From: Octopus vulgaris | Lineage: Eukaryota | DNA length: 64,000 nt | Direction of reading: 5' to 3' | NCBI GenBank assembly: GCA_951406725.2 | Contig: OX597821.1 | Span: forward strand, 107,012,001-107,076,000 | Part shown: positions 1,140-56,815 of the stretch, in pieces | Layout of the letters: the number at the start of each line of letters is the position of its first letter | Position numbering within the stretch: position 1 is the first letter of the stretch | Program-made: the position numbers and the translations under genes | Notes under the pieces: model-generated | What the model was told of the DNA's origin: nothing | Seen by the model: the letters and a program-made list of their open reading frames with translations, nothing else | The model's database searches: none

Positions 1140-2093
1140 CGATCTGTTTAAACGAATTCCAAGCCAAATCATTCCCAACAAAATGAGCAGCATAACGTTT
1201 ACATTGAATAATACATAAACATATGTATATAGGTTAGTTGTGAAGGAATAATTTATCATTCCATAAGTTGCAAGGCAGCAGCTTATTATACTATAGAGTA
1301 CGATAAATCCGGATGTCATCTGCAGAGATTCGTTGACTAGTCTCAGTACTGAGCTTAGAGTATCGTGTGTGTTACATATTTCTGTAATCTTTTTGTGTTT
1401 CTTGAAAACACCTGTATTGTCGGATTGCTGTTCCGTTACGCACCTTTGAGCCTCCTTCGCCACTTTGTTAAATTCATAAATAGCTGCAATACTGATTATA
1501 AAGTCTATATAGAGGTCTAATAACACAATCACCAGAGAGATGCCATTGAATATAGTCTGTATTATTAAAACTAGTATATGATATTTATTGTATGTTGGAA
1601 GAGGAAATATTAAAAATGTCAGAAAATCGTTGCTGCAGAGCGGAAAAATGATGTCTATACAGACATCGAGAAAGAGAGGGGTGAATATAAATACAAAGAA
1701 AGTTGTATGTGAATATACTGAATTAGTGTTATAATATTTTCTATCTTCCTCGTCAGTTTCAAGTTCGGCAAAATTTTCAAAGAGTTGATTGTCGTCAGAA
1801 TCCTTTAACATTTTCGCGAAAAAGAAAAGAGATAAGTAACACCTGTAAATTAATATGTAAAAATACACAAGCATTCCACCTGTGGTAGTATTCTGCTGTT
1901 GTATTATATCCACAAGATGTCGAATCGGGTTCATAATCAAATACACGAGGTACAGCAAGTAAAATGCAGACAGGCAAATTGCTTTAAACTCGAGTGCTTT
2001 CAGCATTGATTTATTCATAAAATATTTCCGAATATTCCGAATATTTCGATATAATTCCAACATTTTTAAGAACTGCGTTTGATTTTCTTTCAT
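1140..2093 (-). CDS. GRL-like (gustatory receptor-like 7TM ion channel) coding exon V1, TM1-TM6, 318 codons
   Basis: ATG at 2093. Multi-TM protein with YEFNKVA...ICNTHDTLSSVLRLVNESLQ and GIRLNRS, followed by phase-0 donor TCG|GTAAGT at 1140/1139. The ORF beyond the donor runs into (CA)n-derived text. Confidence 0.85.
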
Positions 2094-2600
2094 GCTTATT
2101 CAAATTCCCTCGTCTTGAGAGACGTTTCCTTTGAAATAGATGAACACGGCAATAGGGATTAGATGAGGTATAAAGTGTTCTTTACGTTTACCACTACTCC
2201 TGAAATCGTTCTGATACTGTTGTATAAATTAATCTACCAGAAAAACCATAAACACTATTCGATTGCAAAATAAAATATGTACCAACGGACCACATTCATT
2301 CAGAGATTACTATAGGCCTATTAATACAGCGATGATTTGCTAGCGTTAATGGGTTGCATTTCATACTATCGATAATTTATTTCCAAGTCTTATATATTAT
2401 GCATTGTTAAGAAATAGAATAGAAATGATTATACTAATTGTTAATGATGTGGATCGGGTGTCTCTGTTTTGAACATTTTATTGCCATGTAAATATCAGGA
2501 GTCCGGCCCAGTGGTTATTAAGTTAATCAATACCAATTTGTATATAATAATCAGATGCATTTTCGTAATTACATTTTATGCATTAGCGGTTTTACACAAG
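2094..2600 (-). promoter_or_regulatory. Upstream module of V1, homologous to 5937-6470
   Basis: Alignable by eye with the V2 upstream region (ttccaagtcttatatattat, atcgggtg, ttttattgccatgtaaatat, tataataatc..tttcgta). GGGATTA at 2155-2161. Confidence 0.55.
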
Positions 2601-2802
2601 CAGTTATACATATAAACAAGCTGAAGTACATATACAAGTATATGTGTATGTATGAATATGTATATATGTAAGTATATGCTGCAAAGTGCTTTTAGCCACT
2701 GTTCTACCTCTCTTTTGACAACGTTTTCTGCTCTTACAGATATTGCTATATTACGAAGTCATTCATAGAATGATTCTATCTGGCACTGAACGACCCTAAA
2801 AG

Positions 2803-3190
2803 TAGAGGTGCAATGGCCCAGTGGATAGGGCAGCAGACTCGCGGTCATAGGATCGTGGTTTCGATTCCCAAACCAGGTGTTGTGAGTGTTTATTGAGCAA
2901 AAACACCTAAAACTTCGCGTCGCTACAGCAGGAGGTGGTGGCAACCCCTAATGTATTTTCACCACAAAATTCTCTCACTCTTTCTCACTGTTTCTGCTAC
3001 ACCTGTATTTCAAAGGTCCAGCCTTGTCACACTCTGTGTCACGTTGAATCTCCTTGAGAACTACGTTAAGTGTAGACGTGTCTGTGGAGTATCTCAGCCA
3101 CTGGCACGTTAATTTCACGTGCATGATGTTATGTTGATTGAATCTACTGGAACCTCGTCGTCGTAACCGACGGAGCATCACGAAGACGAG
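2803..3190 (+). mobile_element. tRNA-derived SINE (family C)
   Basis: Head TGGCCCAGTGGATAGGGCAGCAGACTCGCGG...GGTTTCGATTCCC with A/B boxes; related copies at 28672 and 57256. Confidence 0.75.
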
Positions 3191-4461: not shown

Positions 4462-4535
<74 letters not shown>

Positions 4536-5268: not shown

Positions 5269-5323
<55 letters not shown>

Positions 5324-5555
5324 CTTTATTATCCACACAGGGTTGAAAACAGACGGGACAAATTACGAAGTAGACCTTTTCTTTTTGGGGAGAAAAAAAG
5401 TGGGGTAGGTTTTCGATCAAAAGGGATCGTAAAAAGGAAAGAAAAAAACCATTAATAGGCATCGTGTATCACAGAAATGTCATGGTGTAAAGTGTAAAGG
5501 GGGAAGTAGGTATATATATATATATATATATATAAATATATATATAAATATATAT

Positions 5556-5936
5556 ATATGAAAATATTAAATTAGTGTTGTAATATTTTCTATCTTCTTC
5601 TTCAGTTTCAAGTTCAGCAAAATTATCAAATAGTTGTTTTTCGTTAGAATGCTTTGTTTCACGGAACAGAAAAGAGATAAATAACTCCTTTAAAATAAAA
5701 CGTAAAACTACGCAAATATTTCTCTCGTGTAAGCATTTTGCAGTTGTATTAGTCATAATATGGTGGATCGGGTTTACAATAAAATATATAAAGGACAATA
5801 AGAAAAATGCAGAGAAGCAAATTGCTTTAAACTCGAGCTCTTTCCCTATTGATTGATTCAAAATATATTTCCGAATATTACTTATATTTCGATATAACTC
5901 CAACATTTTTAAGAACTGTGTTTGATTTGAATCCAT
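5556..5936 (-). pseudogene. GRL-like pseudo-exon V2 (closest to V1), frameshifted and 3'-truncated
   Basis: MDSNQTQFLKMLELYRNI... is near-identical to V1. Compensating frameshifts with TAG/TAA in the V1-homologous frame near 5690-5720; homology ends in (TA)n at ~5555. Confidence 0.85.
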
Positions 5937-11752: not shown

Positions 11753-12709
11753 CGATTTATTTAAACGGACTCCAATCCAAACAATCACCATCAAACATAT
11801 TAGGATAACAGATGTCAGATACACAACATACATGTATAAAACTGATGACATATTTTCAAATGAGCCATTTATAATTCCATAAGTTATGACACAACATCCA
11901 GTAATACTACTGAGCACGAGAAATCCCGAAGAGAATTTAAATGTGTCATTTACTAATCTCAGTATTTTACACAGAGTATCATGTGTATGACATATTTCTA
12001 TAAACTCTTTATATTTTTTAAAGAAATACAAAGTGTCTGATTGCTTTTCTTCTACGTATGTTTGAGCGTCATTTACTGCTTTGTTAAATTCGTATATCAG
12101 TGCAGTCTCAATCGCATAGTTCATATACCATTCAAATATCACAAACATAATTGTCATGGAATTAAATACAATCTGTAATATTAAAATTAACCAGTGGTAT
12201 GGATTGCTGATTGGCACAGGGTATGTTAAGAAAGTGCGAAAATCGTTACTGAAAATCAAAAATACAAATTCTATAATTGGATAGGACATACCTTGCCAGA
12301 CTAGAACTATACAAAGTGACTTATAGGAATATAAAAATTTACAATTATAAAATTTTGTATCCTCTTCTCCGATTTCAAGTCCAGAGAATGCTTCAATGAT
12401 TTGTGTGACTTTGGATTCTTTGAAGATGTTTGTAAGAAAATAGAGCGGAAGAAAGTTACGGGAAAATATTGCGTACGTATATAGAAATATTTCACCAGTT
12501 GAACTACGTTCCCGTTGTAGCAAACCAACAAAATTGCGAATAGGGTTTACAACTACAAATAAAAGATATGCGATATAAAAAAAATAAATTATGACCGTGT
12601 TAAATTTAAGAGATTTCAGTGATGACAGAGTCACAATTGATTTCTTGATAATATCAATTTTCCGGTAGAATTCGAGCATTTTTAAGAATCGTGTCTCATT
12701 CAGTTGCAT
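11753..12709 (-). CDS. GRL-like coding exon V3, TM1-TM6, 319 codons
   Basis: ATG 12709 (MQLNETRFLKMLEFY); YEFNKAV...ICHTHDTLCKILRLVNDTF; GVRLNKS then phase-0 donor TCG|GTAAGT at 11753/11752. Confidence 0.88.
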
Positions 12710-13340: not shown

Positions 13341-13660
13341 CATGTATGTATGTATGTATGCATGTATGTATGTATGTATGTATATATGGTTTTATTTTGA
13401 ATGCTGTCCATCGATTTTATCCAAATACAATAAGTGGCATATCGATAGTTATATTCATTTCAATTAATTTGTATTCTCTGGAGCATTGTTTCAAAATTGA
13501 CTTGTGTTGATTGAGTAAAAACTTTTGTAAATATCTGCCTCATAAAAGAAGAATAAAACTTATCCTCTTTCTAATAGATATTAGAGCGTGGACACTTATA
13601 TAAACGTTGCGTATTTTGTAGTCATATTGTTTTATTTGCTTAGTATGAAACTGGTATGTG
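12710..13660 (-). promoter_or_regulatory. Upstream module of V3 (proximal and distal blocks)
   Basis: GCCTCATAAAA at 12943 and 13537, CTAAGCTTCTTAAG at 13164; homologous to the V4-V8 upstream regions. Confidence 0.6.
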
Positions 13661-14877: not shown

Positions 14878-14879
14878 AG

Positions 14880-15330
14880 ATTTCTCGCGAAAGATCTATT
14901 TCAAATTTATAGCAATTCATCAGTATTTTAAAGTATCGAATTTATGCGACATTAAGAATTTCCTCTATCTAATTACAAACGGAACGATATTCAATCTAAC
15001 GAAAAAATGAATTATTTAATCTTATACCATATATTTATACAATACATTTAACAATACGATTTTCGATTTTACCCCAGGAAAATTGTTTCACATTTCTTTC
15101 GGTTTTCAAATTAAAGAATTGTTTTCGGTTGTAGTGCTTCGGTTTCGTTCGGCAGTGAAGATTAACTTGTACATGAATTATATTATAGTAATCAGTATTT
15201 TTAGAAGTGGAGAGCGAGGTAAAAACATTTGACTGTAAAGAGGTTACTTCATCGATAAAAGTCATCGCTTGATAATCTATTATTTCAACACATTTTGCCG
15301 GAAAGTTTATTCAGAATGTCAGAAGGATAA
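14880..15330. other. Far-upstream conserved block of the receptor repeat unit
   Basis: Homologous to 28050-28200 plus 29175-29510 and to 37070-37500 (tttatgcgac, aatacgattt...aggaaaattgtttca, aacttgta). Indels are not multiples of 3, so non-coding. Confidence 0.65.
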
Positions 15331-17641: not shown

Positions 17642-18466
17642 GATAGAGAATAAAGAGTTTAAAAATTCAGGATCATAAGAAAAGTGTTCATAGAATAAAA
17701 ACATTGTTATACAAAATCCGTTTAGAAGAAAAAAAAATGGAAAACCAAAAAAAAAAAAAACAAGTGAAATGCGAACGCACGAACCGTTGCCATCAACTAG
17801 CAAGGAATGGGTTGTACGAAAGAAGGAAGGAAATGAAAGAGACAGTGAAGTAGAGATGGAGATGTTTATGACGGACCAAGAGAGTGGTGAAGGATATCAG
17901 AGAACGATACCTACAGGGAGAAACTTAAGAAGCCCCATTGTAAATGAAAAAAGTGTCGAAATTGAAAAGAGAGTATGAAAACGGGAAAATGTTATCATAG
18001 GCGCAGGAGTGACTGTGTGGTAAGTAGCTTGCTAACCTCACTGACTGAAGAGTGACTTTGCTTACCTTACTACGGTTTGGACGCGTTTTCTTCCCGGTAA
18101 GAGTTTTGTTGTGTTGTTAATATTACTTCGTACCATCTGGAACTTGTTGAAGTTTATTACTGAAAATTTGTTTTTGAACGTTGTTGAACTGTCTTGTTCC
18201 CCGGTTTTACCGGGGAATAATTGGATAATTTGTTACTGTTGAACTGTTAGCCATTGTGGCTTTTTTATCTACATGACTGTATATAGTCGAGCCAGACTAT
18301 CTTCGTGCCCCTCCCCCGAATGGGGGTGGGAATTAAACCTAATTTTTGAACTGCTTTTTACCACTCATTGAACTGCTTGGAAGAAAAACTTTTTTAGGTT
18401 TCCCAGTTTTGTGGGAAACCAACATTTGTATTTTTTGTGTTGTCTATTACTAATTTCAACAGAATA

Positions 18467-19872
18467 ATGTCTGTTGAGATTATTCACGAAAACATTGCTC
18501 TAGAGGAGAGCAATGTTGATAACTGTAGTAAAAGATTTTCGGCGGTAGCCGCAGTGGCAACCGAGAACATTGACATCAATGTCAATCAGCTCGTCGAGCT
18601 ATTCAAAAGAATGAAAGAGGAAGGTGGTGATGTTAAAATATCACCCTCCGCCAGTATCGTGGAGACCGAGAAGCGGACCGTAGTGTTTAAAACCTTCTGT
18701 CCACAAAGCAGAAGGTTCAAACACTTTGAAAAGAATACTATCGAGAAATGCCTGTCCCCGATTTGGAAGGACATTGTGTACATCGCCAGCGGACGGGCAT
18801 ATGGCACTGTGGAGGTCCACTTCTCGGGGGAAGAGGTGGCCCGCGGGTATTCTGTGAATCCCCTAAAAACCAATGAGGTGGTACTTCTGCCAACCTATAG
18901 GGGACGCAGGACGTCCCGGGTCAGGATTGCAGAAGCACCGCCGGAAGTAGATCCCGTAGATGTAGTGGCCGCTCTGTTATATAAAAGGACGGACAAAATT
19001 AAAATATTACAGGTAACATGCTCTGCCCCTCAATATTGGCTTGGGCGAGACATTAATGTAATAATTCAAGGAACACAGGATGACCTGCAGGTCCTTCGTG
19101 AGAGGGTGCTCGTGGGCGAGAATGTGGCCCTCAGGGTACAGGTCGAAGGCCGAAAACCCACCTGTTACGCCTGCGGCAAAAAGGGTCACATTCGTGTAGA
19201 CTGTCCAGACAAGCAAAAGAAACCGCAGACACCAGGCCCCTCAGATAATAAAAAAATCGCTACCCTTGCAAACTCACCTACCCCTACAAAAACAAAAAGT
19301 CCCACTCCTGCTGTTACGGTGCCAACCCCAAAACAAACTGACAAAAAACCCAGCCCTTGCACTCACAAACCCCTACATTATTAAAACCTCCCACCCCGTT
19401 AAAAACTGCGGCGCCTACTGAACAAAATATTGCTACCCCAGACGATACCATGGAGGTATCAGTGGGGGTATTTACAACAGTTCGTAAAATAATTCGTGCA
19501 TCATCCCCGTCCACATCCCCTATGAAAAATAATAAAAACAAAGACACACAACCGACACCAAAAAAAATCCCGCCCAACTGGCCCAGAAAAGGAATACAAA
19601 AAAATGAACTCATATTAATTGAATATGATACACAAAACAAATATATAAACGATATTGTGGTTCCGCATCACACAGCAAGACTACAACAAACACAAAGATT
19701 GAAACGAAAGATGTGCGTGGATTGCGGAAACAACGTTCAAACGATTAAAAGACAGACACCCACAGGCCATCCGGCGTATCGCAAACTTGCCGGACTATCT
19801 GAAGAAGGAGGAGAAAGAAGGGGCCCACAAATGTGTGGTGAGGTCGGCCCTAACCTCTCCAACGAAACGTAA
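18467..19872 (+). pseudogene. Tx1-like ORF1 (gag-like, CYACGKKGHIRVDC zinc knuckle), frameshift near 19360
   Basis: ORFs 18437..19384 and 19357..19872 overlap across a Pro/Thr-rich region. Confidence 0.8.
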
Positions 19873-19893
19873 GTAGAACTTTTACTTTTTGTA

Positions 19894-22800: not shown

Positions 22801-23260
22801 TGGCCTGGCAGTGTTTCCGTGCGGCTTTACCTGTTCGCGACAAGCTGTCAAGGCACGGAAGTGCCGTCTCACCGACATGCCCGCGATGTGAGTGGGATAG
22901 GGAAACCGTCTTGCACGCATTCGTGGAGTGTCCGGAGTTATCGGGACTGATAGCTGTTGCCGAACAACTGTTGTCAGTGATGGGAAGAGTACAGCTATCA
23001 GCTGAGTCTATCATCGAGATTGTGCCGCCACCTTTCCTTAACAGGGAAAGAAAGGCTTGTTTTTTCTGTGTAGTAGCCATACTGAAAGAAACAGTATGGA
23101 AGACGTGTACGAAAGGTATAGTGACAGGCACCTTTGTCTCCGGCCAGGGGTTGATTAACTTTTTTAGTTACCACTTCAGTAGCAAAATCAGGCTGTAGAA
23201 GAGGTGTCTGTCACGAGATATGTTTGTGAAAAGATGGAAGCCTGTGGCATGCAAGCTGGG
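19894..23260 (+). pseudogene. Tx1-like ORF2 (APE endonuclease + reverse transcriptase)
   Basis: LNVRG, GDFN, YLDR, TDH, SPGLDG, DQSKAFDRV, AYADD, CPRC..HAFVEC; TGA at 21343, frameshift ~22235, TAG at 23196. Confidence 0.92.
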
Positions 23261-25975: not shown

Positions 25976-26926
25976 CGAATTATTTAGACGAACTCCAGTC
26001 CAAACCATTATCATCAAGTAAGTTAGGCCAAAAATTATTAGAAATGCAAAGTAAATGTATGTTAAGGATATATTTTGAAATGAGCCATTTATAGCTCCGT
26101 AAGTTGTTATACAACTTCCAATATTACTAGCGAATACGATAAAACCCGAAGGTATCTGAAATGATTCATTTGCTAATTTCAGTATTGTACTCAGAGTATC
26201 ATGAGTGTTACATATTTCTGTAATCTCTTTAGATTTCTTAAAGAAATATGAAGTGTTGAGTTGACTTTCTGTGTATATCCGAGCTTCATTCGCTATTTTG
26301 TTAAACTCATATATTAGTGTAATCCCCATTGTAAAGTTTATATAGCAATCAAATATCACGGACGCAATTGACATACTGTTAAATAAAGCATGTATTGTTA
26401 CAATTAGCCATTGAAACGAATTGCTGTGTGGAACTGGGTATGTTAAGAAACTCCGAACATCATTACTGATGTACACAAACGTGTAAAACAGAAAAAGGTA
26501 GCTAGTAATAAGCAAGAACAAAATTCCACAGAGTAATTTATAGGAATGAATTGATTTACAATTGTAGAAATGTTTATCATCTTCTTGAATTATAAGTTCG
26601 CCAAATGCTTCAATTACTTGTTCCTCTTTAAAGTTTCTGAAGATCTTTATCAGATTATACAGTGAAAGGAAGCACTGCAAAAATGTTGAATAACTATATA
26701 CAAATATTTGATCGTTTGTGTTACCTTCAAATAGTATGAAATGAAAAATATTGTGAATGGGAAAAGCAATCAAATGTATTAGATACAATGTAGAAATGGC
26801 ATCAAAACAGATTGAGCTTAATTTCAACGAATTCAAAGATGGAATATTCGCAATTGATAACCTGATATTATTAATCTTTCGGTATAATTCCATCATTTTA
26901 AAGAATTTTGTTTTTTTAAGTTGCAT
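25976..26926 (-). CDS. GRL-like coding exon V4, TM1-TM6, 317 codons
   Basis: ATG 26926 (MQLKKTKFFKMMELY, aligned with paralog starts); GVRLNNS then phase-0 donor TCG|GTAAGT at 25976/25975. Confidence 0.88.
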
Positions 26927-27950: not shown

Positions 27951-28207
27951 TATATATGTACATACGTATGTGTCTATATGGTAGGTTGTGTGTATGTATA
28001 CATTAATCTTTTTTAATGTATATAGCTTTACATCAAGTTTTCGAAGACCTTGCAAAGTATTAGTTTCCTATCTAATCACGTTTATGCGACGTTATGAATA
28101 TTCTGAAGATGTACCTTAACACAGTGAAAATTGTTCAATCTGTTATCTTAATATAATAAAGAACTGGATTATTTAGACTTATATAGCATGTATTTATACA
28201 AAAGTAT

Positions 28208-33885: not shown

Positions 33886-34833
33886 CGATTTGTTTAAACG
33901 AATTCCAGTGCAGACCATTAAAATCAACTGAATTAGGCAAGAAGATAACATATATGCAACGTAAATGTATGTAGAGGACATATTTTGAAATGAGCCATTT
34001 ATAATTCCGTAAGTTGTAATACAACATCCAGTAATACTACTAAGTACGATAAATCCCTTAGACAACTGAAATGATTCATTTACTAATCTCAGTATTGTAC
34101 TCAGAGTATCATGTGTGTTACATATTTCTGTAATCTCATTGTATTTCTTAAAGAAATACGAAGTATATGATTGCTTTTCTTTAACGTATATCTGAGCCTC
34201 ATTCGCTACTTTGTTGAACTCATAAATCAATGCGGTTTCAATTGCAAAGTTCATATAGAAATCAAGTGTCACAGATGCAAGTGATATATCAGTGAAAAAA
34301 GACCGTGTTGTTAAAATCGGCCACCTATACATAACTGGAGCGTGATTTGTAAAGAAAATCAAAGCATTGTTACTGAAATACGAAATGAAATGAATCATAA
34401 TACAGTCAGTAATAGCAGTGAAGAATATAACTGCGCACAGTAATTTAAAAGAATAGATGGACTTATAATTGTAGAATTTTTTATCATTTTCTTGAATTTT
34501 AAGTTTGCCGAATGCTTCTATTAGTTGTTCGGATTTAGATTTTCTGAAGAATTTTATCAGATTATACATCAAAAAGTAACACTCGAAAACTATTAAGTAA
34601 ATATACACAAATCTTTCATCAGCTGTCCTATCATCCATGTGTATTACATTAACAATATCTAGAATGGGATATGCTATCATATATAAAAAATGCACAGCAG
34701 AAAAGACATGAAAGCATATTGAGCTAAATTTCAGCGATTTCAGAGATGCGATACTCGTAAATAATAATCTGATATTATTAATTTTCTGGTACAGTTCCAT
34801 CATTTTAAAGAATCGTGTTTCTTTGCGTTGCAT
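33886..34833 (-). CDS. GRL-like coding exon V5, TM1-TM6, 316 codons
   Basis: ATG 34833 (MQRKETRFFKMMELY); GIRLNKS then phase-0 donor TCG|GTAAGT at 33886/33885. Confidence 0.88.
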
Positions 34834-37052: not shown

Positions 37053-37539
37053 TATATATATATGTAGATTTCGCGAGATATATTTTCAAAGACGTCGCGA
37101 TCTATTAGTCATTTATATAAACGTGTTCATGCGACATTAGGAATTCCCTGTATCTGAACACTTACTAAACAATATTAAATTTGCTTTTTCAGTTTCATAA
37201 ACAACTGAATTATTTAAACTTATAAAATCTATTTAAGCATTATGTTTAAAAATACGATTTCTAATTTTTCCTCAGGATAACTGATTCGCTTTCCTTTCAG
37301 TTTTCAAACTGTTATGTATAGAATAATTTTTTCTCGTTACAGTGGCTTGGCTTTGGTCCTCATTCAACATTAACTTGTAAACAGAAACATTGGTTATATA
37401 TAATCTTTTGTGTTTTTGAAATGGTGAGCAAGACGAATGATTTTAATTGTTGGGCGGATGGTTCATCGATACGAGAAATTCATTGACAATCTATTGTACT
37501 AAGAACAACAACGACAACAACGATAATAATAATAACGGA

Positions 37540-39088: not shown

Positions 39089-40042
39089 CGATTTGTTTAA
39101 ACGTACTCCTATCCAAACCGTTGTAATAAAATGAGTAAGGCAATTAGTTAACTGATATGAAACATAGAAGTATATATATGATATATTTGTAAAGGAACCA
39201 TTTATAATTCCGTAAGTTCCAATGCAACATCCAAAAATACTACTAATTACGATTAGTCCGCCCGTCTTGTGAAACGATTCATTTACTAATTTCACTGTTG
39301 TAATCAGAGTATCATGTGTGTTAAATATTTCTGTAATCTCATTGTATTTCTTAAAGAAATACGAAGCGTCTGATTGCTTTTCTTCGATGTATCTCTGAGC
39401 TTCTTTCGCTATTTTGTTGAATTCATAGGACAATGCAGTTTCAATTGCAAAGTTCATATAGAAATCAAGTGTAAACGATGAAATTGATATGCAATTACAT
39501 AAAACCTGAATTGTTAACATCGGCCATTTATACGGATTGCTAACTGAAACAGGATATGTTAACCAACTAACAAAATTGTCATTGAAATGCGAAATTAAAT
39601 GAATGATGATAAAATAAATTATAATTCTCAACAATATAACAACACCTAATAACTTATATGAATATATTGATGCTGAATTGTAGAATTGTTTATCTTCTTC
39701 TTGAACTTTAATTTTGTCAAAAGCTTCTATTAGTTCCTCAGCATTAAATTTTTTGAAGGATTTTATAACACAATGCAGTGTGAGGAAACAATGAGAATAT
39801 ATGAAATAAATATACACAAATATTTCATCAGGTGTCCTATCTCTCAGTTGTATTAAAATAACAAGATCTAGAGCGGGTTTTCCAATCAAATATAGAAAAT
39901 ATACTGCATAAAACGCATAAAAACAAATTGCGCTATATTTCAGCGATTTCAGAGATGCGATACTCGTAAATAATAACCTGATATTATTAATTTTCTGGTA
40001 CAGTTCTATCATTTTAAAGAATCGTGTTTCTTTGAGTTGCAT
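39089..40042 (-). CDS. GRL-like coding exon V6, TM1-TM6, 318 codons
   Basis: ATG 40042 (MQLKETRFFKMIELY); GVRLNKS then phase-0 donor TCG|GTAAGT at 39089/39088. Confidence 0.88.
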
Positions 40043-40940
40043 TTTTTTTCTTTTTGGTTCTGTTTTGTTGTTTGTAATTACAACTTCTTCAATAGCTGCT
40101 TCAAAGTCAACAGTTAAAACCAACAAGCTGTTTCTCACTTTTCTAGATCTTCTAATATCTTATAATGCTTTGTACTGTTTCATGTACGTAACTGTATATT
40201 ACTGGTTGTTTGAGACTGTTATATGTACAAGTACAAAATCAATATTTTACTGATATCAATTAGTTTGTATTATATCAAGCATTGTTTCAAAATGGACATC
40301 AGTAAGTTAATAAGCTCGTATTATATCTGCCTTTTAAAAGAGCATTGATATTTCTTTTGATTAATATAGTAGCATGCATCTATGATTTAGTTTCTCCGTA
40401 CTTAGATATTACTTTTAATTAGTTCTTATTGATGTCGTATAAGTATTAAAAAAATCCACTAAGCTTAAAAGAGCTCATGCAGGATCACCGTCTAATAACT
40501 GAAACTATTAAAAGAATAAAATTAAAGCTTTTTAAGACACATAGGGATTAGAGTCTATAAATTAAAAGAACATTCACGCATACACAAAATGGAATATCAG
40601 TATGAATATTTATATATAGGTACATACATGCCTACGTACATAAATACACGTACACACAGTCACGCACATAGCTTCTGAGTGTTTATCGACTTTAACAAAT
40701 ACAATAAATGACATATTGATGTTATATTCATATCTATTATTCAGTATTATATCAATTATTTTTTCAAAGTTTACTTGTATTGTTTGAGTAAAAGCTTTTT
40801 TGTTATATCTGCCTCATAAAATAATAATAATAATAATATTTATCTTTCTTCTAATGGATTTAAAAGCCGAAACACTTATTTAAAGATTATGTATTTGGAC
40901 GTTGTATACTTTTTCTTATGTAAGGTGACACGTTCATATA
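40043..40940 (-). promoter_or_regulatory. Upstream module of V6 (TATAAGA 40164-40158)
   Basis: CTAAGCTT at 40459, GGGATTA at 40544, GCCTCATAAAA at 40811. Confidence 0.6.
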
Positions 40941-41213: not shown

Positions 41214-41640
41214 CGATTAATTTAAACGGACTCCAGTCCAGATCATTGTGATCGAAAAAATTACGTTTATAGAAGTCACAAATATAACAGTAGTGTGTAC
41301 AGAGAATACAGTTTTAAATGAATCATTAACAATTATGTAAGTTGCAATACAACATCCATTAATAGAAACTAGTGTGATAAATCCCGAAGTCAACTGAAAT
41401 GATTCATTTACTAATTTCAGTATTGAACTCAGAGTATCGTGTGAGTTACATATTTCTGTAATTTCTTTATATTTCTGAAAGAAATACAAAGTGTTTGACT
41501 GCTTTTCTTCTACGTATCTCTGAGCCTCGCTCGCTACTTTATTAAACTCATATAGCAGTGCAGTCCCAATTGCAATATCCATATACCAATCAGGTATGAC
41601 AGCTGTAATTGACACAGCATTAAATACAATGTTTATTATT
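41214..41640 (-). pseudogene. GRL-like pseudo-exon V7 (closest to V8): 5' half deleted, K>stop just before the donor
   Basis: DWYMDIAIGTALLYEFNKVASEAQRY...GVRLN*S|GTAAGT; mid-exon joins directly to promoter sequence (41641-41820) homologous to 57005-57180. Confidence 0.88.
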
Positions 41641-41819
41641 GAGTTATTATATACAGCCTTCCGCTTTGTTTGTATGTAGGTATTATTTTTAATTTGTTGC
41701 TATGGATGTAAAGTATAAGTCAAATTGAATATAGCACGCTAATCTTCTTAAAAGCGTATGAACATTATTTGCATTATATTAAACCAATATTTTTGAAAGC
41801 GTGTAAGAAGATTAATATA

Positions 41820-42318: not shown

Positions 42319-45300
42319 ACTTAGAATAACTTAGAAAGGTTTTGGCCAGTATTGGCCCAGGCCATGTCTAACTTAATAGCACCACCTGGCGAAGTCTTTC
42401 AGTTCAGGATTTGAGCACCAAGGCCCATTCGAGCAGAGAGTTATTGTTTGCGGAGACATATCCGGGTGTGGGTGGTTTGTCCGGTACTGTTTGAAGGAAT
42501 TTGTCCAAAGACTTCTTGAATTTTGTGTGGTCAGTTTCTTTTTTGACGTGTCCTGGTGTAATGTTGAAGAGAGCGGGTCCAATTGAGGTGAAATAGTTGT
42601 GCCGTATTGTCGTTATGTGATGCGATTTAGATTTTTGTTGTGGACGGATGGCACGTGGTCCAAGCCTTGGATGTATTTTGAAGGTGATGCCAACATCATT
42701 CGGACAGTGCTGATGGAATATTTTCCACATCATACAGATAATGTAGCGTTCACGGCGTCGTTGGAGTGAATACAATTTCAGCTTCTCTAGTCTACCCCAG
42801 TAGTCAAGGTCTGACATGCCATCTATCTTTTTTGTGATTGACCTTTGGGGAGCTTCAATTCTCATAATATTTTGTTTTGTGTAGGGAGACCACAGTGGAC
42901 AGCAGTATTCAAGGTGGGATCGGGCAAAAGTGGAGAAGAGAAGGATAATAGCGTGGGAATCTCTCGACTGGAAGGTTCTGAGAATCCAGGAACACATTCT
43001 GCGGGCCATGTCAACTTTGCTGCTTATATGTGTAACCCAGCTTATGTTGTTGTCCACTGTTACTCCCAAGTCTCTGATGTTGTTGGATGCCATGAGAATT
43101 TCTCCAGAAGGAAGAGAGTATGGGAGTTTCAGAGCGTCCTCCCTTCCAAAGTGGATCAGTTCGAATTTGTCTTCATTTAACAACATGTTATTCTTTTCCG
43201 CCCATTGGACAACAGCCAGTAGGTCTGACTGAAGGTTTATTCGGTCATCCACGCCATTGATGACCTTCTGGAGCTTGGAATCATCAGCGAAGGTTCTGAT
43301 GTTACTGTGTTTGATGGTGTCAATAATATCATTTATGTAGATGATGAAGAGAAGTGGGCCCAACACAGTGCCTTGTGGGACACCACTGCTGACTTTGGCT
43401 GGGCTGGATTTGACTCCTTCGACTACAACATGTTGGGTTCTGTTAGACAGGAAGCACTTGATCCACTGCAGCAGCTTTCCAGTGACACCAATATTGGACA
43501 GCTTTCTCAGAAGGATCTTATGATCAACCCTGTCAAAGGCCTTGCTAAAATCAAGGTAGATGACATCAGTGTTGGAACCTTCTCCCAAGGCTCTCAAAAT
43601 GTCATCGAAGTGATGCAGTAGCTGCGTCAGGCAATCTCTCCCATTACGGAATCCATGCTGGTTGGGGTTCAGCATATTATGACTCTCAAGGAAGTGAGTC
43701 ATATGCGATCTCAGCACCCTCTCAAATACCTTGATGATATGAGAGGTGAGTGAGATTGGACGGTAATTCACGGCAAGCGATTTGTTTCCTTTTTTGAAAA
43801 CTGGGACAACAGACTGGGATAGAAGGTCTTCTGGTATATATCCAGCATCCGGTGAGTTCCTCCACAGATTGGCTAGAGGGGGTGCAAGTTGGTTTTGACA
43901 CATCTTCAAGACACAAGCAGGGAACCTATCGGGACCTACTGCTGAATTATGCTTCATTTCCTTTATTGCTGCTAAGACATCAGGAGCGCCAAATGTTATG
44001 TCCGATAAAGTGTATTGGGGAGTAACATCACTGATACAGCCCAGATCAGTCATATCAGGATTGCTGAAAACAGAGCAATATTGTTTCTGCAATATCTCTC
44101 CCATGGTTTTGGCATTGTCTTGAAGAGTACCATTTTCATCAATCAGAGGGCCAACAGTAGAACCAGTGACTCTGTGTTTTTTTTGCAAATGAAAATAACA
44201 CTTTGGGATTGAGTTTGATCTTCTCAATGGCCCAGGCCTCTTCAGCTCTTCGCTGACTATTGATGATAGACGTCATGTTGTTTTGGAGTTTATGTTTTTT
44301 AATCTCTAGCGACGAGATGGCAGTCAGGTTGGTGTGTTGCTGTTGACAGTATATCAGAATGTTGATCTTTTTGTTAATTCTTTTAATTTTCCTTATGAGA
44401 GATTTTCTATTCCTGGGGATTCGACACTTAGATTTGTTTGCAGATCTTAATGGGGTGTGTCTTGCACATATGTTCGTGATGGTGTCTACAAGTGATTGCC
44501 AGGACTTTTTGATGTTAGTGGGTGTTTATGTGTGCGTGAAGGACCAATCGACTTGTGCAAGATAATTATTGATCGCTTCCCAGTTTGCATTGTGGAAATC
44601 CATAGTGTCAAATGGATGAACAGGAGGGATGACATTTGTCTTGCATTTTGGCCAGTGAAATCTCAGATCACAGAGAACCATGTCATGATCTGAGAGTAGG
44701 GTTTTCTCCACTGCAATATTGTGGATAGTATCAGTGAGATTGCTGAAAACTAAGTCTAAGACGTTTTTGTGACATCTCGTTGGTTCGAGTACCAGTTGGG
44801 ACAGGAAGAAATCATCCATGAAGTCAAGAAGCGATTCCACTGCCTTCCTGTCAGGGGTTGAGAGAGAAGAACCTGGCGGCAGACTGTTTGTAGACCAGTC
44901 AACCCCGGGAAGGTTGAAGTCTCCCATCATTAAAATGTTGTCAGGTTGACACTGCTGAATGAAACACTTTATGCTGTTGAGGCATTCCTTGAAGCATGGT
45001 AGGGACGTTTGGGGTGGTCTGTAGAGCCCAACTACTGTTAAGTTGTTGGTTTGACTGAATACAGCGACTGCTTTGCAGTATCCATTGGAAAATATGTTCA
45101 TGGCTTCTGTTGAGAATGAATCATGGACATAAATGGCAGTCCCACCCTTTCTTCTGCCAGCACGATCAGCACGAATGGTTTTGAAATTTTTAACTTTCAC
45201 CTCGGCTTCCAAGTGGAGGTCACTAAGATGGGTTTCAGTGAGGACGAAGAAAGGGATGTGGTTTGGATGGGCCTCTACCCAGTGCTCCAGGAATCTTATC

Positions 45301-47075
45301 TTCCATTTGTGTGTATTGGTGGAAGGGCTGATGCCTTGGGCATTAAGCAGAAATGTTGAGGCGAGAGTGGATGGTTTTAATTGTTTTGGTGATTTGTTCA
45401 TTTTATTGCTTTTTAATGGCATGTGCAGTGGGGTGATAGTGGTGGATGGTGGTGGGTGATAGCTCGGATGTTTTTTTCCAGTTCTTTTGCTAGATTCATT
45501 ATAGCTAAAAAAGAGGAAGAAGAGGTGGTTTCCTGTCTAGGGAACTGTAGGTGACTGTGGTTGTGGTTATTTTTATATGAGTGGTTATCTTTAAATGTCC
45601 GACGAGTCCCCGGGAGATGGGTAAAGGGGCAATCCCTGTGCAAACACAATCTGTCTCGCTGGGAATAGCGGCAGATTTGGGGATTCCTTGTTTGAGATAT
45701 TGGTGGTTGTGGTGATGTTGTATTATGGTGGTTGCTGTTGTAGTTTGTGGGGATAGAGCGTTTTGTTCAAGGTAAATGGGTGAATTTGCAGTCTCTATCA
45801 GTGCACAGTCTATGGCGAAGAGAATATCGGCAAATGATGGGGTTTCGAGTGGGTGTGTAGGTGCGTGTGTGTGTGTGAGTTGTGAAAGGTGTAGATGATT
45901 GTTTGTTGAAGTTTTGGCGACCTTTGTGACCTGTAGAAGGTAAATTCCTTGAGATAGCATTAGTAGTAGTAGTTGTAGTAGTAGTAGTAGGTAGAAGGAT
46001 GTTGACAGTGGTAATAATTGAGGAGGTCGATTCCAAGATGTTTGTCGATACATAGTGGGAGTAGTACTAGTAGTAGTAAGCAGAGGAGATAGTGTTGACA
46101 ATGATGATGATTGAGCTGCTGGGGCGGTGAAAGGAAGGGGTGGTACTTCCTGCTGTGTGACCCTGATGACTGGGGGGTCAATCGTTTCGTTTAGCAAATC
46201 GGCCATTGTAGATGAATCAAGGAGTGGTTCATCCTGTTGTTGTTGTTGCTGTATCTGTTGTTGTTGTTGTTGTTGCCGCTGAGGTTGTTGCTGCTGAAGT
46301 TGTTGTTGCTGTAGCTGTTGTTGTTGTTGTTGCCGCTGAGTTTGTTGTTGTTGAGGTTGTTGTTGTTGTTGCGCCGGTGATGCGTTCGAAGAGAAAACAC
46401 ATCTCAGTTTATCGAAGTGTTTATTTATTAATTTAAAAGCAACTTCGATTTGTTTTAATTTATTTTGTATCTGCTGTTCAGATCGAGTTTGCAAATGGTG
46501 AACTGTTCGTTTAGCAATTTCGTTCAGACACGAAGCACCTATGCTCTCTGTTTCGGTAAGGCCATGCCATGTGTTGATAAGAACGTCGACTTCATTATCA
46601 GACCAGTTTTTGTTGGATTTTTGGTGGCTAGCCATTCTGGTTGATATGTTTTATTAAATTTTATTTTGTTCGTTTGTTTTGTTGATTACTTTTAATTATT
46701 ATTTTTTTTTTTAAGGAGAAGTATGTAGAATAGATTGTACAGAATGTTTGCTGTAATACTGAGAAGTTTGTATTTGAATTATGAGCTTGTAGTTATTTTA
46801 TCTTTCTTTTCTTTTCTTCTTTTCCCTCTTTTTCTAATTTTTTATGTGTGGGTGATCCTTTAGTTATCAGAAGGTGTTTGAAAATATTTGGTCGTTTGAA
46901 AATTATGAAAATAGTTTGTGGTTAAGGAAAAGTCTACTCACGAGTTTGAAAAAAGCATGGTTTCAAATATACAGGAATATATGTGATGGTCAATTTCGAC
47001 GAATGTAGCTGTGAAGCTTGCTGCTGACCGGCGCAGAGAGGAGTAAAAACACTTCTTTATACTTCAGCAATCATG
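42319..47075 (-). mobile_element. Near full-length CR1/L2-group LINE (ORF1 + APE-RT ORF2), few disablements
   Basis: APE ORF 44526..45422 (LNAQG, LTETHL, GDFN, LSDH); RT ORF 42404..44227 (QHGFR, DFSKAFD, GVPQGTVLGPLLF, FADD, LYSLQRRRERY); tail of TCTAAGTTA-like repeats. Confidence 0.9.
45413..46635 (-). pseudogene. LINE ORF1: Myb/SANT-like N-terminus, polyQ, two CCCH fingers
   Basis: WSDNEVDVLINTW; CRYSLRHRLCTDRDCKFTH and CRYSQRDRLCLHRDCPFTH read across frameshifts. Confidence 0.65.
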
Positions 47076-47247: not shown

Positions 47248-50203
47248 AAACTTAGATAAACTTAGATATGTTTCGACCAAAGATTGGTCCAGGCCATGTC
47301 TAACTTAATAGCACCACCTGATAGGATTATTCGAATCCTGTTTAAGTCAAGTTCTGTTCAAGTAGTGAGTTCTTGTTGGGTGAGTTGTATCCAGTTTTGT
47401 TCAAGTAGTGAGTTCTTGTTGGGTGAGTTGTATCCAATTATGGGTGGCTTATCTGATATTCTTTGAAGGAATCTATCCAGACTCTGTTTAAAGTTGATGG
47501 GATCCTTTTCCTCTTTGATCTCTCTTTGGACAATGTTAAATAGGGCAGGGCCTGTTGAGGAAAAGAAATTATGTTGCACTGTACATGTATGTTGTGATCT
47601 TGAATTGGGCAGGGGACGTATAGCCCGTGGTCCAAGTCTTGGATGAACCTTGAAGCTAATGTTTAGGTCGTTTGGGCAAAGTTGGCGGTATATTTTCCAC
47701 ATCGTACAAATGATGTACCGCTCACGGCGACGCTGGAGGGAGTAACGTTTCAAGGCTTTAAGGCGATCCCAATAATCGAGAGCAGCCATGCCTTCAATGC
47801 GTTTAGTGAGTGCCCTCTGGGGTGACTCAATTCTGGAAATGTTTTGTCTTGTGTGAGGAAACCACAGTGGGCAGCAGTATTCAAGGTGTGACCGTACAAA
47901 GGAGGAAAAAAGTGGTATGATGACACCTTGTTCTCTGGACCGGAAAGTTCTTAAGATCCAGGAACTCATCCTACGAGCTATATCGACCTTCTTGTTGATG
48001 TGTGCACTCCAACTGAGATCGTCATCAACAATTACACCCAGGTCTCTGATATTGTTAGAGGCTGTGAGCGGTTTCCCTGAAGGAAGAGAGTATGGCTGTT
48101 TTAGTGAGGAGTTTCTTCCAAAATGCATCAGCTCAAATTTTCCCTCGTTCAGTTGCATTTTGTTTCTGTCTGCCCATTGACTCACAGCATATAGATCAGA
48201 CTGGAGTTGAGTTCGGTCTGCTTCTTCATTGACGATTTGCTGGAGCTTGGTGTCATCAGCAAATATTTTCACTTTGCAGTAATGTACGACACTGGAAAGG
48301 TCGTTTATGTAGATTATGAAGAGTAGCGGACCCAAGACAGTCCCCTGGGGGACACTGCTGGTTACTTTTGCTGGGCTTGAGTGGACTCCATCAACTACAA
48401 CATGTTGTGTTCTATTCGCCAGGAAATACTTGATCCAGTGTAGAACTTTTCCACGGATTCCAACATTTGCCAATTTTGAGAGTAGGATAGTATGGTCTAC
48501 CCAGTCGAACGCTTTACTGAAGTCAAGATATATGACATCAGAGTTCGAACCTGTTCCCAAGGCCTTGAGTACATCTTCAATGTGGTTTAAGAGCTGTGTT
48601 AGACAGTCCCTGCCACAGCGAAAGCCATGCTGATTTGCATTTAGGAGTTTCTGGGTCTCCAGGAAGTCAGCCATCCTTGATCTTAACACTCTTTCAAACA
48701 CTTTGATGATGTGGGAGGTGAGTGAGATTGGGCGATAGTTGAGTGCGAGGGATCTGTTTGCCTGTTTGAAAACCGGGATGACTGACTGGGATAGAAACTG
48801 TTTTGGTATATAACCTGCATCTAACGAGTTTCTCCAGAGGTTGGTCAGAGGGACTGCAAGTTGGTGTCTACATTCCTTCTGGAGACTAGCGGGGAATCTA
48901 TCAGGGCCTACAGCAGAGTAGTATTTGACCTCATTTATTGCTGCTACGTTGTCAGTGGGAGTGGAGGTTATGTCTGAGATTTTATGTTGGGAGTCAACTT
49001 CGTTCGCTTCTCTTACGTCAATATCAGTGGGAACACTAAAGACAGAGCAGTATTGTTTCTGCAGTATTTCTGCCATTTCTTTAGCATCGTGTTGGGGAAT
49101 GCTGTTAGCATCAATCAATGGCCCAATGGGTGAGACAGTGGTTCTATGCTTATTTGCATAGGAATAGAACACTTTTGGTTTCTGTTTGATGTTTTTGATT
49201 ACCCACTGTTCCTCCGCAGCTCTTTGGTTTTCAATGGAGGTTTTCATGTCGTTCTGCAGATGAAGTTTTTCCAGCTCTAGCCTTTTCATTGTTGTTGAAC
49301 GTGGATGTCGTTTGTGGGAATATTTTAATTGGTTGATTTTTTTGTTAAGTCTTTTGATGCGCCTGATGAGTGTTTTCTTCTTTTTAGGGAGCCGATTTCT
49401 GTTTGTGTTAGTAGATTTCGTGGGAGCGTGTTTAGAGCATGTATATGTGACAATGTTTTCAAAGTGCCGCCATGCGGTCTCAATATGGGTGGAATTGAGA
49501 GTTAAAAGACCAGTCGATGAAAGACAGATCCTTTCTGATTGCTCCCCAGTCCGCTTTGTGGAGGTTTATGTTATCAAATGAGTGCCATGGAGTGGGATTG
49601 GCTGGTTTGGTTTTTATATGTCGGGAAGTGAAATTGCAGAGTACCATGTCGTGATCTGAGAGGAGAGTTTTTTCAACTGAAATACTGTGAACAAAGCTAG
49701 AGTGATTGGTCAATACCAGACCCAAGATCGTTTTATTCTGTCTCGTTGGTTCGAGCACAAGCTGAGTCAGGAAGTATTCACCCATTAGATTAAAGAGCAG
49801 TTCCGCTGCTGCCCTATCTGATGTAGAGCACTTGCCTAACTTTAGAGTATTTGTGGGCCAGTTCACATGAGGGAGGTTAAAATCACCCATCACTAGAATG
49901 TTTCCGGAGTGGTAATTCCGAAGGAAGGACTTGACTTTGCTAAGGCACTCTTCAAAGCACTTTAAAGGTGCTTGGGGAGGCCTGTAAAGACCAACAATGA
50001 CTATGTCCTTGGCCTTGCTGAATAGTGATACAGATTCTCAATAGCCATTGGAAAATATGTCCTTGGCATCAAGTGAGAAGGAGTCATGGATAAAGATTGC
50101 TGTCCCTCCCTTATTTCTGTTTGTACGATCCGCACGAACAATGGTGAAATCTTTTATTTTCACCTCGGCGTCTATGGGTGTTGTTCAGGTGAGTCTCGGT
50201 AAG
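47248..50203 (-). mobile_element. 5'-truncated CR1/L2-group LINE (sister subfamily)
   Basis: RT ORF 47358..49289 and APE fragments up to LTETHL at ~50200; 3' end CAGGTGGTGCTATTAAGTTAGACATGGCCTGG shared with the 42319 element; 43-bp tandem duplication at 47351-47436. Confidence 0.9.
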
Positions 50204-53560: not shown

Positions 53561-53699
53561 CCTGGCAAGTGTACAATATTATTAACATAGTTAATGAGGT
53601 TTGCAATCAGATGTACTGAATGCAGGATATAAAATGCAAAGACACAGACAGAGCTAAAATCGTTGACATAAAATATACAAGTTCAATTTTTATGTAAGA

Positions 53700-54150
53700 T
53701 CTTTAGTTTTTCAATTTTAACTCTATAATGAATTTCGTGTAAGGAATATTTGAAATTTGTTGCTGTGGATTTATAATATATATCAATTTAAACATTGTTC
53801 GCTAAGCTTCTTAAAACGTACAAAACTTAGATTCTATGAATTAAACGAACACCTTTCCAAGCGTATAGAAATATAAATATGAATAATAACACACACACAT
53901 ACACACACGCACACATACTCACATATACACACACCCTCACGCACAGACACATATATGAAATTTATGCCGCAAGTGCAATTATGGGAATAACGATGTTTTA
54001 TTGAAATCAAGTTGTTCCCATTCTATAGAGCATTGGTTCCGAATTCACATTTCTTGAGTAAAAGGCCGTTTCTCTACTGCATAAAAGAATACTTCTAATT
54101 CTTCTAATGAATATGTTAGCGTGAGCATTAATGGTAACAATTTATTACGT
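53700..54150 (-). promoter_or_regulatory. Orphan or displaced receptor upstream module
   Basis: GCTAAGCTTCTTAAAA at 53801; gagcattggttcc..ttgagtaaaag..tgcataaaagaa..ttctaatgaatatgttagcgtg matches 13480-13590. Confidence 0.55.
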
Positions 54151-55909
54151 TGTGATATAGCATTTCTGAGGTACCCTGATACAAAACTGTATACATGCGT
54201 GGGCCTACGTGATTGTATGTCTGTATATATATAAGACTATATGTGTGCGTACCTGTATATAACTGTGTGTATATATGCATATATAAAGCGCGTCCAGTTG
54301 GAAGAATCGTTAGCATGCCTGACGTAAGGCTTAGCTGTATTTCGTCTGCGGTTGCGTTCTGAGTTCAAATTACGGCGAGGTCGAATTTGCCTTTCATATT
54401 TTCGGGGTCGATTAAATAAGTATCAGTTATGCACAGGGAGGTAATGTAATCGCCTTAATTCCTTTGTCTATCCTTGTTCGTTCCGTTTATGTTTAGGCCC
54501 CTGTGCGATATATATATATATACATGGGAGTATATGTGTATGACGGTGTGTTTAAAACCTCCTGTTATTAGGGGTATCGCGAAAGGCTTTGCTGGAGGCC
54601 CAATCTTCTGATTTCTTTAACATGATTTAGAAAAACAGACGGACGGCTACAATAAGTGTTTTAATCTGAGTGGGGAATATATTATATAAAATGGTAATTA
54701 ACAGATCCTCCTGCATTTTCATTTACATAAAACCAGAAAGTTTTCAGGACTCTTTCGTGTATGCATTTATAAATATATAAATATTTTCATAGACAGAAAA
54801 CCATATATATAAATGTGTAAATGTGTAGATAGACAAATAGATAGATAGATAAATACATAGATAGACACAACGACACACATACATATGCACATACAGATAC
54901 TCACTCATATATGCCTTTCTACTCTAGGCACAAGGCCCGACATTTTTGGAGAGGGAGTTATTCGATTAGCTCGAACCAAGAACAAATGGATTAAGTCGAT
55001 TACATTGATACCAGTACGTAACTGGTACTTAATTTATCGACCCCGAAAGGATGAAAGACAAAGTCGACCGCGGCAGAATTTGAACTTAGAACGTAACGGC
55101 AGGCGAAAAACGGCTGCGCATTTCGCCCGGCGTGCTAACGTTTCTGTTAGCTCGCCGCCTTAAACTCACAGATATATATATTTGAGTGTGTGTGTGTGTG
55201 TAGCTGGTAATGTGTAAATATTTTCAAAAAAACACAGGTTTGTATGCATAAATAAACATTCAGAAGGAGGAAAAGAAGGAAAAGAACAAAATGAAGAGAC
55301 GAAGGAGGTGGAGGAAGAGGAGAAGCGGAAGAAGAAAGAAAGAAAGAAAGACTATTAGGAAATGCAGAAACATCAGAAAAAAACATTCGTACATTGTTAT
55401 TGAAGTTATCAGAATGTCGGTCCGTTGTGTCCTGAAAATAAAGCCATTATTGACACAGGACAAAAGTTAGTCTATGTGAATTGTTTTCTATCTCCCCACT
55501 CAAGCCTTCTGGAGTTCTTGGATAAGCGAGAATTTGCTTGGCGTCCCTAAGACGTTTTACAATGAATGGTTGCTAAATGCGACAACCAAGAGTGAGAAAG
55601 TGTGAATGAATGAATAATGTAATCAGAGAATGAGTAGAATGTCGGTGGTGATAATAGTCATAGTGGTAAGGATGGAAGATTTTAGTTCATTATTCCACAT
55701 TTATCCAATGTTTTCATTTGAGAAACGAAAGTGACAAGACGGACAATGGAAGGAATGATACAAAAAAGCTTTAAAAAAACCGATGTTACTGGAGTCACAG
55801 AGTCTTTCCACACGATAATGAATATGCTAATTCGATATCTTTTATGATGTAATATCTATACTAAATATTCGAAAATAACTTGTTTGACAGAATTATATAT
55901 AAAACTTAC

Positions 55910-56815
55910 CGATTTATTTAAACGAACTCCAATCCACACCATTATGATCAAAGCCACCATGTTGCAAGAAGCCGCAAACATAACGGGAATGTATATAGAT
56001 GATGTATTTTTAAATGAGCCATTTATAATTCCGTAAGTTGCAGTACAAGATACAGGAATACTACAGAGTGCGATAAATCCCGAAGTCAACTGAAATGATT
56101 CATTTACTAAATACAGTATTCTACTCAGAGTATCATGTGTGTTACATATTTCTGTAATCTCTTTATATTTCTTAAAGAAATACGAAGTGTCTGATTGATT
56201 TTCTTCTACGTATCTCTGAGCCTCGCTCGCTACTTTATTAAACTCATATAGCAGTGCAGTCCCAATTGCTAGATCAATATACCAATCAAATAGCAGGGAC
56301 GCAGTTGTTATGCTATTTATTAAATTGTCTATTATTATAAATGTTAAAAAAACTGTTGATAAGCTACCAAACAGCAATACATTCAAAATAATTTGAATAA
56401 TTACAGGTAGGAATACAAGTACAGAAAATGTCTTAAAAGAAAACGCGTTATTATTATAGAATACTTGATCGTCTTCTTTAATTGTAAGTTTGGTGAAAGC
56501 TTCGACTATTTCTTTGACTTTAGATTTTCTGAAGGTTTTCATTAGAAAATACAGCGAATGTAGACTCTGGAGACACATCCCAAGAATATATACAAATTTT
56601 GTATCATTTGTGTGAAGAAGCAATTGCCCAATAACATCCACATATTTAAGGGGGCCTGCAACCAGATATAGAGAATATAACTTACAAAAAGCATAGAAAC
56701 ACATAGTGCTACGTTTGAGAGATATCAGTGAAATTTTCACATTTGATATCCTAAAACCATTCATTTTCTCATAAAATTGCAGTATTTTATAGAATCGTGT
56801 ATCTTTCAGTTCCAT
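55910..56815 (-). CDS. GRL-like coding exon V8, TM1-TM6, 302 codons
   Basis: ATG 56815 (MELKDTRFYKILQFY); GVRLNKS then phase-0 donor TCG|GTAAGT at 55910/55909. Confidence 0.86.

Follow-up and report, generated by a model that had tools for sequence, protein, structure and literature searches.

Gustatory-receptor-like open frames of Octopus vulgaris as probable alternative first exons of a locus with a shared pore cassette

The window analysed here is a whole stretch of 64,000 nucleotides from Octopus vulgaris (C8:107,012,001-107,076,000, where C8 denotes contig OX597821.1), and it carries six long, related open reading frames of the gustatory-receptor-like (GRL) type. We consider it likely that these frames are alternative first exons sharing one pore cassette situated outside the window, in a locus of probably chemosensory, ligand-gated channels. 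Both the family and the splicing design are known; here they occur in a new lineage and at large scale.

Variable exons and the shared cassette

Below, a variable (V) exon is a long exon with an ATG encoding helices S0-S6, and C1, C2 and C3 are the exons of the constant cassette. All six open frames lie on the minus strand and run from the ATG to a splice donor over 302-319 codons, at the positions given in an earlier sequence-only reading of this DNA. The following features are found in the window:

1..1139, minus strand: intron heading toward the cassette outside the window
1140..2093, minus strand: V exon g1, 318 codons, helices S0-S6, phase-0 GTAAGT donor; cassette acceptor 39.1 kb away
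5475..5936, minus strand: broken V exon; the 5' part alone remains (profile positions 1-144) and passes into a TA microsatellite
11753..12709, minus strand: V exon g3, 319 codons, GTAAGT donor; weak Pfam 7tm_7 match, E 0.024
25976..26926, minus strand: V exon g4, 317 codons, GTAAGT donor
33886..34833, minus strand: V exon g5, 316 codons, GTAAGT donor
39089..40042, minus strand: V exon g6, 318 codons, GTAAGT donor
41220..41684, minus strand: broken V exon; the 3' half alone remains and has a stop directly past RLN; nearest to g8 (65% amino acid, 81% DNA identity)
55910..56815, minus strand: V exon g8, 302 codons, S3-S4 loop deletion, GTAAGT donor; cassette 93.9 kb away

The six exons match each other in tblastn at E < 1e-55, hence the open frames are not due to chance. 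In each of them the conserved part stops at RLNxS and is followed by a phase-0 GTAAGT donor (6/6), past which the frame reads through 15-119 unconserved codons to a stop. The sequence-only reading took the six for intact paralogs; they are indeed open and related, but none is a whole gene, as all end at this donor and have no helix-7 exon. It also overlooked two broken copies (5936-5475 and 41684-41220). Among the motifs it listed, GxRLN is present in all six exons, while HxxLxxxxxxVNxxF is exact in four (the other two have VNESL and ANESF). For the six or so hydrophobic spans noted earlier, a crude hydropathy scan yields 3-6 per exon; in the AlphaFold model of the g1 orthologue, the V part contains six long helices.

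The sole database match of g3, O. bimaculoides XP_052825892.1, has 57 extra residues ending in a TY..Q helix. This tail has no match anywhere in the window, and no exon for the last ~70 residues was found there. In the 1.314 Mb scanned around the window, a region without N, three phase-0 exons (69 nt, 90 nt and approximately 57 nt) code for the tail, and the nearest such three-exon cassette (S7a/S7b) is located 38 kb left of the window:

C8:106,974,032 (span 106,973,964-106,974,032), minus strand, phase 0: C1, 69 nt
C8:106,973,055, minus strand, phase 0: C2, 90 nt
C8:106,971,234, minus strand, phase 0: C3, with TYILVVIQT and then a stop

A splice-aware profile scan covering 8,884 phase-0 candidates from the 1.314 Mb revealed 17 C2 exons, none of them between 106,973,055 and 107,282,556, and no C1, C2 or C3 exon was found by profile scans in the window or in the surrounding 309-kb block. 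As a positive control, a profile built from only 7 divergent C2 exons still detected the main type (E~1e-11). When inter-exon peptides and DNA were compared all against all, no private terminal exons of the window V exons emerged, the only matches being repeats resembling short interspersed nuclear elements and upstream non-coding blocks. In the spliced protein, the exon boundaries fall at residues 318 (within S6), 341 (within S7a) and 371 (directly ahead of the TY motif of S7b).

The window belongs to a 1.05-Mb cluster with 62 intact V exons and 17 cassettes. The V-exon profile matched 93 loci at E<0.001, weaker matches being dropped. Of these, 62 are intact, 30 are broken, and one unclassified locus turned out to be frameshifted, giving 31 broken loci in total, in agreement with the birth-and-death mode proposed earlier. 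Each V locus was assigned to the cassette that follows it downstream. On this basis, the window's block comprises 34 V loci (intact, n = 19; broken, n = 15) upstream of one cassette, over 265 kb; in the other blocks, intact V exons number 12, 7, 5, 4, 3 and fewer, and units of one V exon and one cassette are also present in the cluster. Six copies of the cassette type of the window's block exist, with exons differing by 0-1 nt. For five divergent queries, full-length relatives were found solely in this cluster.

All V, C1, C2 and C3 junction ends are in phase 0 with AG/GT (the comparison with insect introns is by phase only). A phase-0 donor is present in all 62 intact V exons (GTAAGT, n = 50; other GT, n = 11; GC, n = 1), being part of the definition of an intact V exon. 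In the RefSeq annotation of O. sinensis, isoform X1 of LOC118764608 (XP_036361421.1) is the orthologue of g1, its first exon being 98% identical, and X2 and X3, partial models of 141 aa, are orthologues of the two intact V exons between g1 and the cassette (97% and 99%). The three isoforms have a common 71-residue tail identical to the cassette of the window's block, and X1 passes over two intact V exons. Similarly, in LOC118764607 two V exons of another block are joined to one tail, 68/69 identical to the 106.452-Mb cassette, and the farthest V exon of another block (77 kb from C2 in the O. vulgaris layout) is annotated as spliced in O. sinensis. With 97-99% identity between the orthologous exons and proteins of O. 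sinensis, an Octopus source of this DNA, earlier proposed as a probable cephalopod, is supported. The tail of an O. bimaculoides isoform was not used for cassette assignment, being 63/69 and 65/69 identical to two cassettes.

The C1-C2 joint, with a 908-nt GT-AG intron removed, is present in four of four sequencing runs from two studies at depth 2-7. Thus, the cassette is transcribed and spliced. That the V exons are spliced to this shared cassette is, in our opinion, very likely.

Alternatively, the six frames might be genes in their own right, equipped with private helix-7 exons or complete as six-helix proteins. Every frame starts with an ATG of its own and, past the donor, stays open for 15-119 codons before a stop, and one-V-one-cassette units do occur elsewhere in the cluster. 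However, C1, C2 and C3 are absent from the window and the 309-kb block with the positive control working; the donor is kept in all copies, whereas the tails read past it vary in length and show no conservation; lacking S7b, a protein would miss the pore helix (PMC11100771); and the RefSeq isoforms attach V exons to a common tail. Hence independent genes seem highly improbable.

An acceptor-like site (at least 14 pyrimidines of 18) was found within 150 nt upstream of the ATG in none of the 19 V exons; applied elsewhere, the same test recognised true acceptors in 15 of 21 cases and was positive in 10% of random windows. Since no acceptor is nearby, we favour the V exons being first exons with their own promoters. 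A different arrangement would be that of Dscam, with mutually exclusive internal exons, one shared promoter and one 5' exon. In this case, the conserved non-coding blocks 2.2-2.7 kb above g3, g4 and g5 could be untranslated exons, and the acceptor scan covered 150 nt upstream. Still, acceptors are lacking near the ATG in 19/19 exons, each V exon has an ATG of its own, and a TATA-like motif is situated 165-230 nt above the ATG in 11/19, a weak sign in AT-rich DNA; we regard the Dscam-like arrangement as unlikely.

Two side observations concern these junctions. The only V exon with a GC donor, at C8:106,545,328-106,546,299, is intact. In two Octopus species, a CAG acceptor inside C1 accounts for a 14-residue difference between RefSeq isoform pairs; its use would make the cytosolic extension of S6 shorter.

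Membership in the GR/OR-GRL family

The window exons almost certainly belong to the gustatory and odorant receptor (GR/OR-GRL) family of seven-transmembrane ion channels (7TMIC), as the sequence-only reading had it; the fold, Atlas, the 7tm_7 scores of three spliced homologues and the three phase-0 3' introns all point there. Because the predicted local distance difference test (pLDDT) of S7 was below 50 in the model of the spliced homologue P0002, a second AlphaFold (AF2) model with more C-terminal rows was made for P0005, the spliced O. sinensis orthologue of g1 (pLDDT 84, predicted TM-score 0.82). The P0005 model has the OR/GR fold, that is, S0-S6 with a split S7a/S7b and a long cytosolic S4-S6. 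Among 48,161 chains compared by VIA, the first eight places are taken by OR, Orco and GR chains (Z 19.2-24.4, the next chain having 7.8), with 313-366 residues aligned. Foldseek gave the same ranking (probability 1.0, E >= 0.002), so that the comparison with Orco and Gr structures recommended earlier came out in favour of this family. In Atlas, searches by features and by structure both led to GR clusters (score 0.96, TM 0.75-0.78). The fold allows us to infer a tetrameric ligand-gated cation channel with an intracellular N-terminus.

The profile check suggested at the same time was divided. The Pfam 7tm_7 gathering score of 26.6 bits is passed by three spliced homologues (P0002, 31.6; P0011, 30.3; P0012, 27.4) and missed by P0001 (25.1), P0005, P0006, P0015 and all six window exons; a sequence search of the Protein Data Bank was weak (Gr43a, E 0.14). 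The S7b motif TYILVVIQT retains the T, the Y, five hydrophobic residues and the Q, with T and not F in the last position. Its counterpart in BmGr9 is TYLVILIQF (PMC11100771), and variant TM7 motifs are described in true GRs (PMC9998090). Threonine occupies the outer gate position (F444 of BmGr9) in all 7 distinct C3 sequences seen. A C-terminal search gave 4 Octopus proteins only, among 36 candidates.

Other receptor classes do not fit. In accordance with the earlier reading, DRY or NPxxY are present in none of the six window exons, and rows of G-protein-coupled receptors (GPCRs) in Foldseek have TM <=0.17, which argues against a rhodopsin-type GPCR. Both AlphaFold models are all-helical without strands, unlike a Cys-loop chemotactile receptor with its large beta-sandwich ectodomain and four TM helices.

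Age and selection

The six window exons have pairwise identity of 41-62% and synonymous divergence (dS) of 0.38-1.36. Thus, they are old, and the recent expansion that had been claimed for them does not hold; a recent expansion adjoins the window at 107.09-107.22 Mb, with dS from 0.06. In an IQ-TREE quick-search tree, 16 of the 19 intact V exons of the window's block form one group (support 95), and g1 falls with V exons of another block.

For the window V exons, the ratio of nonsynonymous to synonymous rates (omega) is 0.61 overall (likelihood ratio test, LRT, 33 vs 1) and 0.30 in the cytosolic S4-S5 anchor; for the constant exons it is 0.09-0.24. In the young clade, which is the most distal one, omega is 1.16 overall, not different from 1, and 0.48-0.51 in the N-terminal and anchor parts. 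For these nine exons, M2a was preferred to M1a under two codon-frequency models (2dL 30.6 and 29.4), with 8 sites having posterior >0.9, of which 7 lie in the outer half of S1-S4 and S6. By analogy, the positively selected sites would be situated where insect GRs hold the ligand.

These values bear on the possibility that only the V exons nearest to the cassette are used, the distal ones being orphaned and either decaying or kept by recent duplication. Indeed, the annotated isoforms of the block represent just the three nearest intact V exons; from donor to acceptor, the introns would span 39-94 kb when starting at the window exons and as much as 265 kb when starting at the farthest V exon of the block; 15 of the 34 block loci are broken; and the overall omega of the young clade does not differ from 1. 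On the other hand, the window exons have remained open after dS of 0.4-1.4 under constraint (omega 0.61, anchor 0.30), the most distal clade retains omega of 0.48-0.51 in its N-terminal and anchor parts, and O. sinensis annotates as spliced the farthest V exon of another block, 77 kb from C2. We therefore consider use of the nearest exons only to be improbable.

Known counterparts, possible role and neighbouring loci

In Drosophila Gr39a, large exons that each carry an ATG, six helices and a donor stand in tandem and are followed by three small shared helix-7 exons; the large exons undergo birth and death, the constant exons are under much stronger constraint, and D. melanogaster has four large exons where most other species have a fifth (PMC2204066). 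The octopus cluster has the same layout of long exons and three short ones as Gr39a and Gr28b, with the same birth and death and the same contrast in constraint; it differs in being from a mollusc and in its block of 19 intact and 15 broken exons over 265 kb. In Blattella germanica, Gr60a-m combines several long first exons with one set of three short exons, joined across phase-0 introns, to give up to 13 isoforms, and three phase-0 introns are described as spanning animal GRLs (PMC6175461). This cockroach resembles the octopus in its long alternative first exons, shared short exons and many such loci per genome; its largest locus has 13 isoforms, and the phylum is different. A larger insect array, of about 30 isoforms, exists in Tribolium, hence the size of the octopus array is no record. 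As P0005 is only ~10% identical to insect GR structures, the array has probably evolved by convergence on the three-intron layout that octopus and insects share. The likeness to animal 7TMIC proteins (BmGr9, Gr43a, Gr64a, MhOR5, Orco) comprises the fold (Z 19-24), the S7a/S7b split, the TY-hhhhh-Q motif and three phase-0 3' introns, the difference being Thr in place of the outer gate Phe F444 of BmGr9.

Vertebrate clustered protocadherins alpha and gamma also join variable first exons to three constant exons, although their proteins are unrelated to octopus GRLs, and stochastic promoter choice is a property of protocadherins. The chemotactile receptors of octopus are Cys-loop pentamers of proven function, of which O. 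bimaculoides has up to 26, and their ligand pocket is under positive selection (PMC11526382). They share with the octopus GRLs lineage-specific expansion of ion channels and positive selection, whereas the GRLs are unrelated to them, have up to 62 intact V exons, and their function is predicted.

Under the interpretation that we prefer, each V exon would have its own promoter, and promoter choice would pick one V exon. As the V exons have donors and no nearby acceptors, the chosen one would be spliced past all downstream V exons to C1, the first strong acceptor. The V part (S0-S6) would supply the ligand pocket, and the C part (the end of S6, S7a and S7b) the common anchor and pore; with this shared C part, the isoforms might form tetramers with the same gate, possibly mixed, that would gate cations upon binding of a chemical.

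By analogy with other receptor families, we lean toward a chemosensory role. Even with the splicing architecture correct, these channels may not be external chemoreceptors; light, heat, internal-nutrient or developmental roles, as in LITE-1, Gr28bD and NvecGrl1, are reported for GRLs (PMC7746228, PMC5850775, PMC11526382), and the depth of the cassette in the four runs is low. We consider this a serious, if less probable, option, since 62 intact and 31 broken tandem exons with diversifying selection at the ligand site of insect GRs make up the usual chemoreceptor pattern.

Several points weigh against the interpretation as a whole. With regard to the family, the Foldseek E-values are 0.002 or worse, S7 is the least confident region in both models (pLDDT 35-65; P0005, 42-65), P0005 has no Pfam match at E<=0.01, just one of the six window exons matches 7tm_7, and weakly, and the motif ends in QT, not in the QF of canonical TYhhhhhQF. 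With regard to splicing, the four runs with the C1-C2 joint are RNA by guess, with depth 2-7; a V-C1 junction was not found in the reads, where loose ends were swamped by an intron repeat; the reads cannot tell which cassette copy is used, because the six copies differ by 0-1 nt; the isoform evidence is automated annotation of another species covering one of the six window exons; and the acceptor scan reached 150 nt above the ATG, so that an acceptor may lie farther up. The selection tests were a custom implementation without a check for recombination or gene conversion, and the regional boundaries for omega were drawn after the conservation profile was known. Finally, GRLs outside insects can serve non-chemosensory roles (PMC7746228, PMC5850775).

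GRLs are already known in Mollusca (PMC7746228), and the annotated O. bimaculoides genome has been mined for them (PMC11526382); individual octopus GRL sequences may thus be listed in earlier surveys. We found no description of a cephalopod GRL cluster in the literature, and in term searches "octopus" and "cephalopod" were absent from the main text of PMC5850775, PMC9998090, PMC7746228 and the Himmel preprint. The cluster may have been overlooked because it is annotated as no more than a few "uncharacterized" genes and because none of the 26 matches of a Pfam 7tm_7 genome scan falls in it.

The locus offers up to 62 candidate receptors with defined splice models for studies of cephalopod taste and smell, and the design with variable first exons and a shared pore would now be represented outside arthropods, suggesting that the ancestral three-intron GRL layout repeatedly permits expansion of this kind. 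The cluster could give the octopus approximately 60 overlooked, probably chemosensory, ion channels. More speculatively, and in our view rather doubtfully, they might constitute a third, unrecognised ionotropic chemoreceptor class: approximately 60 GR-like tuning subunits within one Mb, chosen by promoter in each sensory cell, with a few shared pore cassettes and a non-canonical Thr gate, supplying the olfactory organ, lip or sucker. If so, this class would be larger than the chemotactile receptors and would offset the small GPCR repertoire, as cephalopods are reported to have few lineage-expanded chemosensory GPCRs (PMC11886862).

Elsewhere in the cluster, about 8 tandem units of a V exon and a cassette are situated at C8:106.79-106.98 Mb (L030-L046, L001-L003), being 91-99% identical. 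Frameshifts affect many of their V exons and the C1 of one cassette, and C2 is missing from one cassette. An assembly artefact was considered and rejected: the introns are 91-99% identical between copies, hence most units are real duplicates, while the closest pairs could be haplotypes. An intact V exon on the plus strand (L027, C8:106,755,527-106,756,495) has no cassette found nearby, with a weak C1-like match (E 0.19) 1.5 kb downstream; its relatives sit 500 kb away, which suggests an inversion. A lone V-exon fragment is located ~0.5 Mb past the cluster (L127:4670-4933, plus strand). At C8:24.54 Mb, 82 Mb off, the Pfam scan brought up a distant GRL-like exon (L126:2946-4145, minus strand), a 400-codon open frame that matches the V profile at E 1.2e-7; no constant exon was found within the 7 kb examined near it, and judging by its sequence it is probably another GRL locus.

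Within the window, non-coding blocks with 65-75% conservation are found at similar distances upstream of g3, g4, g5 and g6, and are candidate promoter or enhancer elements duplicated along with the V exons:

14878-15281, 29184-29450 with 28038-28196, and 37066-37495: conserved non-coding blocks upstream of V exons
13410-13616, 27692-27938 and 40685-40896: conserved non-coding blocks upstream of V exons

A non-LTR (long terminal repeat) retrotransposon at 18398-23198 (plus strand), between g4 and g3, has a zinc-knuckle ORF1 and an endonuclease/reverse transcriptase ORF2 interrupted by stops. Two further endonuclease/reverse transcriptase copies, at 42404-45536 and 47358-50037 (minus strand), are 68% identical over 3.1 kb, and between them a Q-rich open frame with a weak Myb/SANT match is located at 45505-46650.

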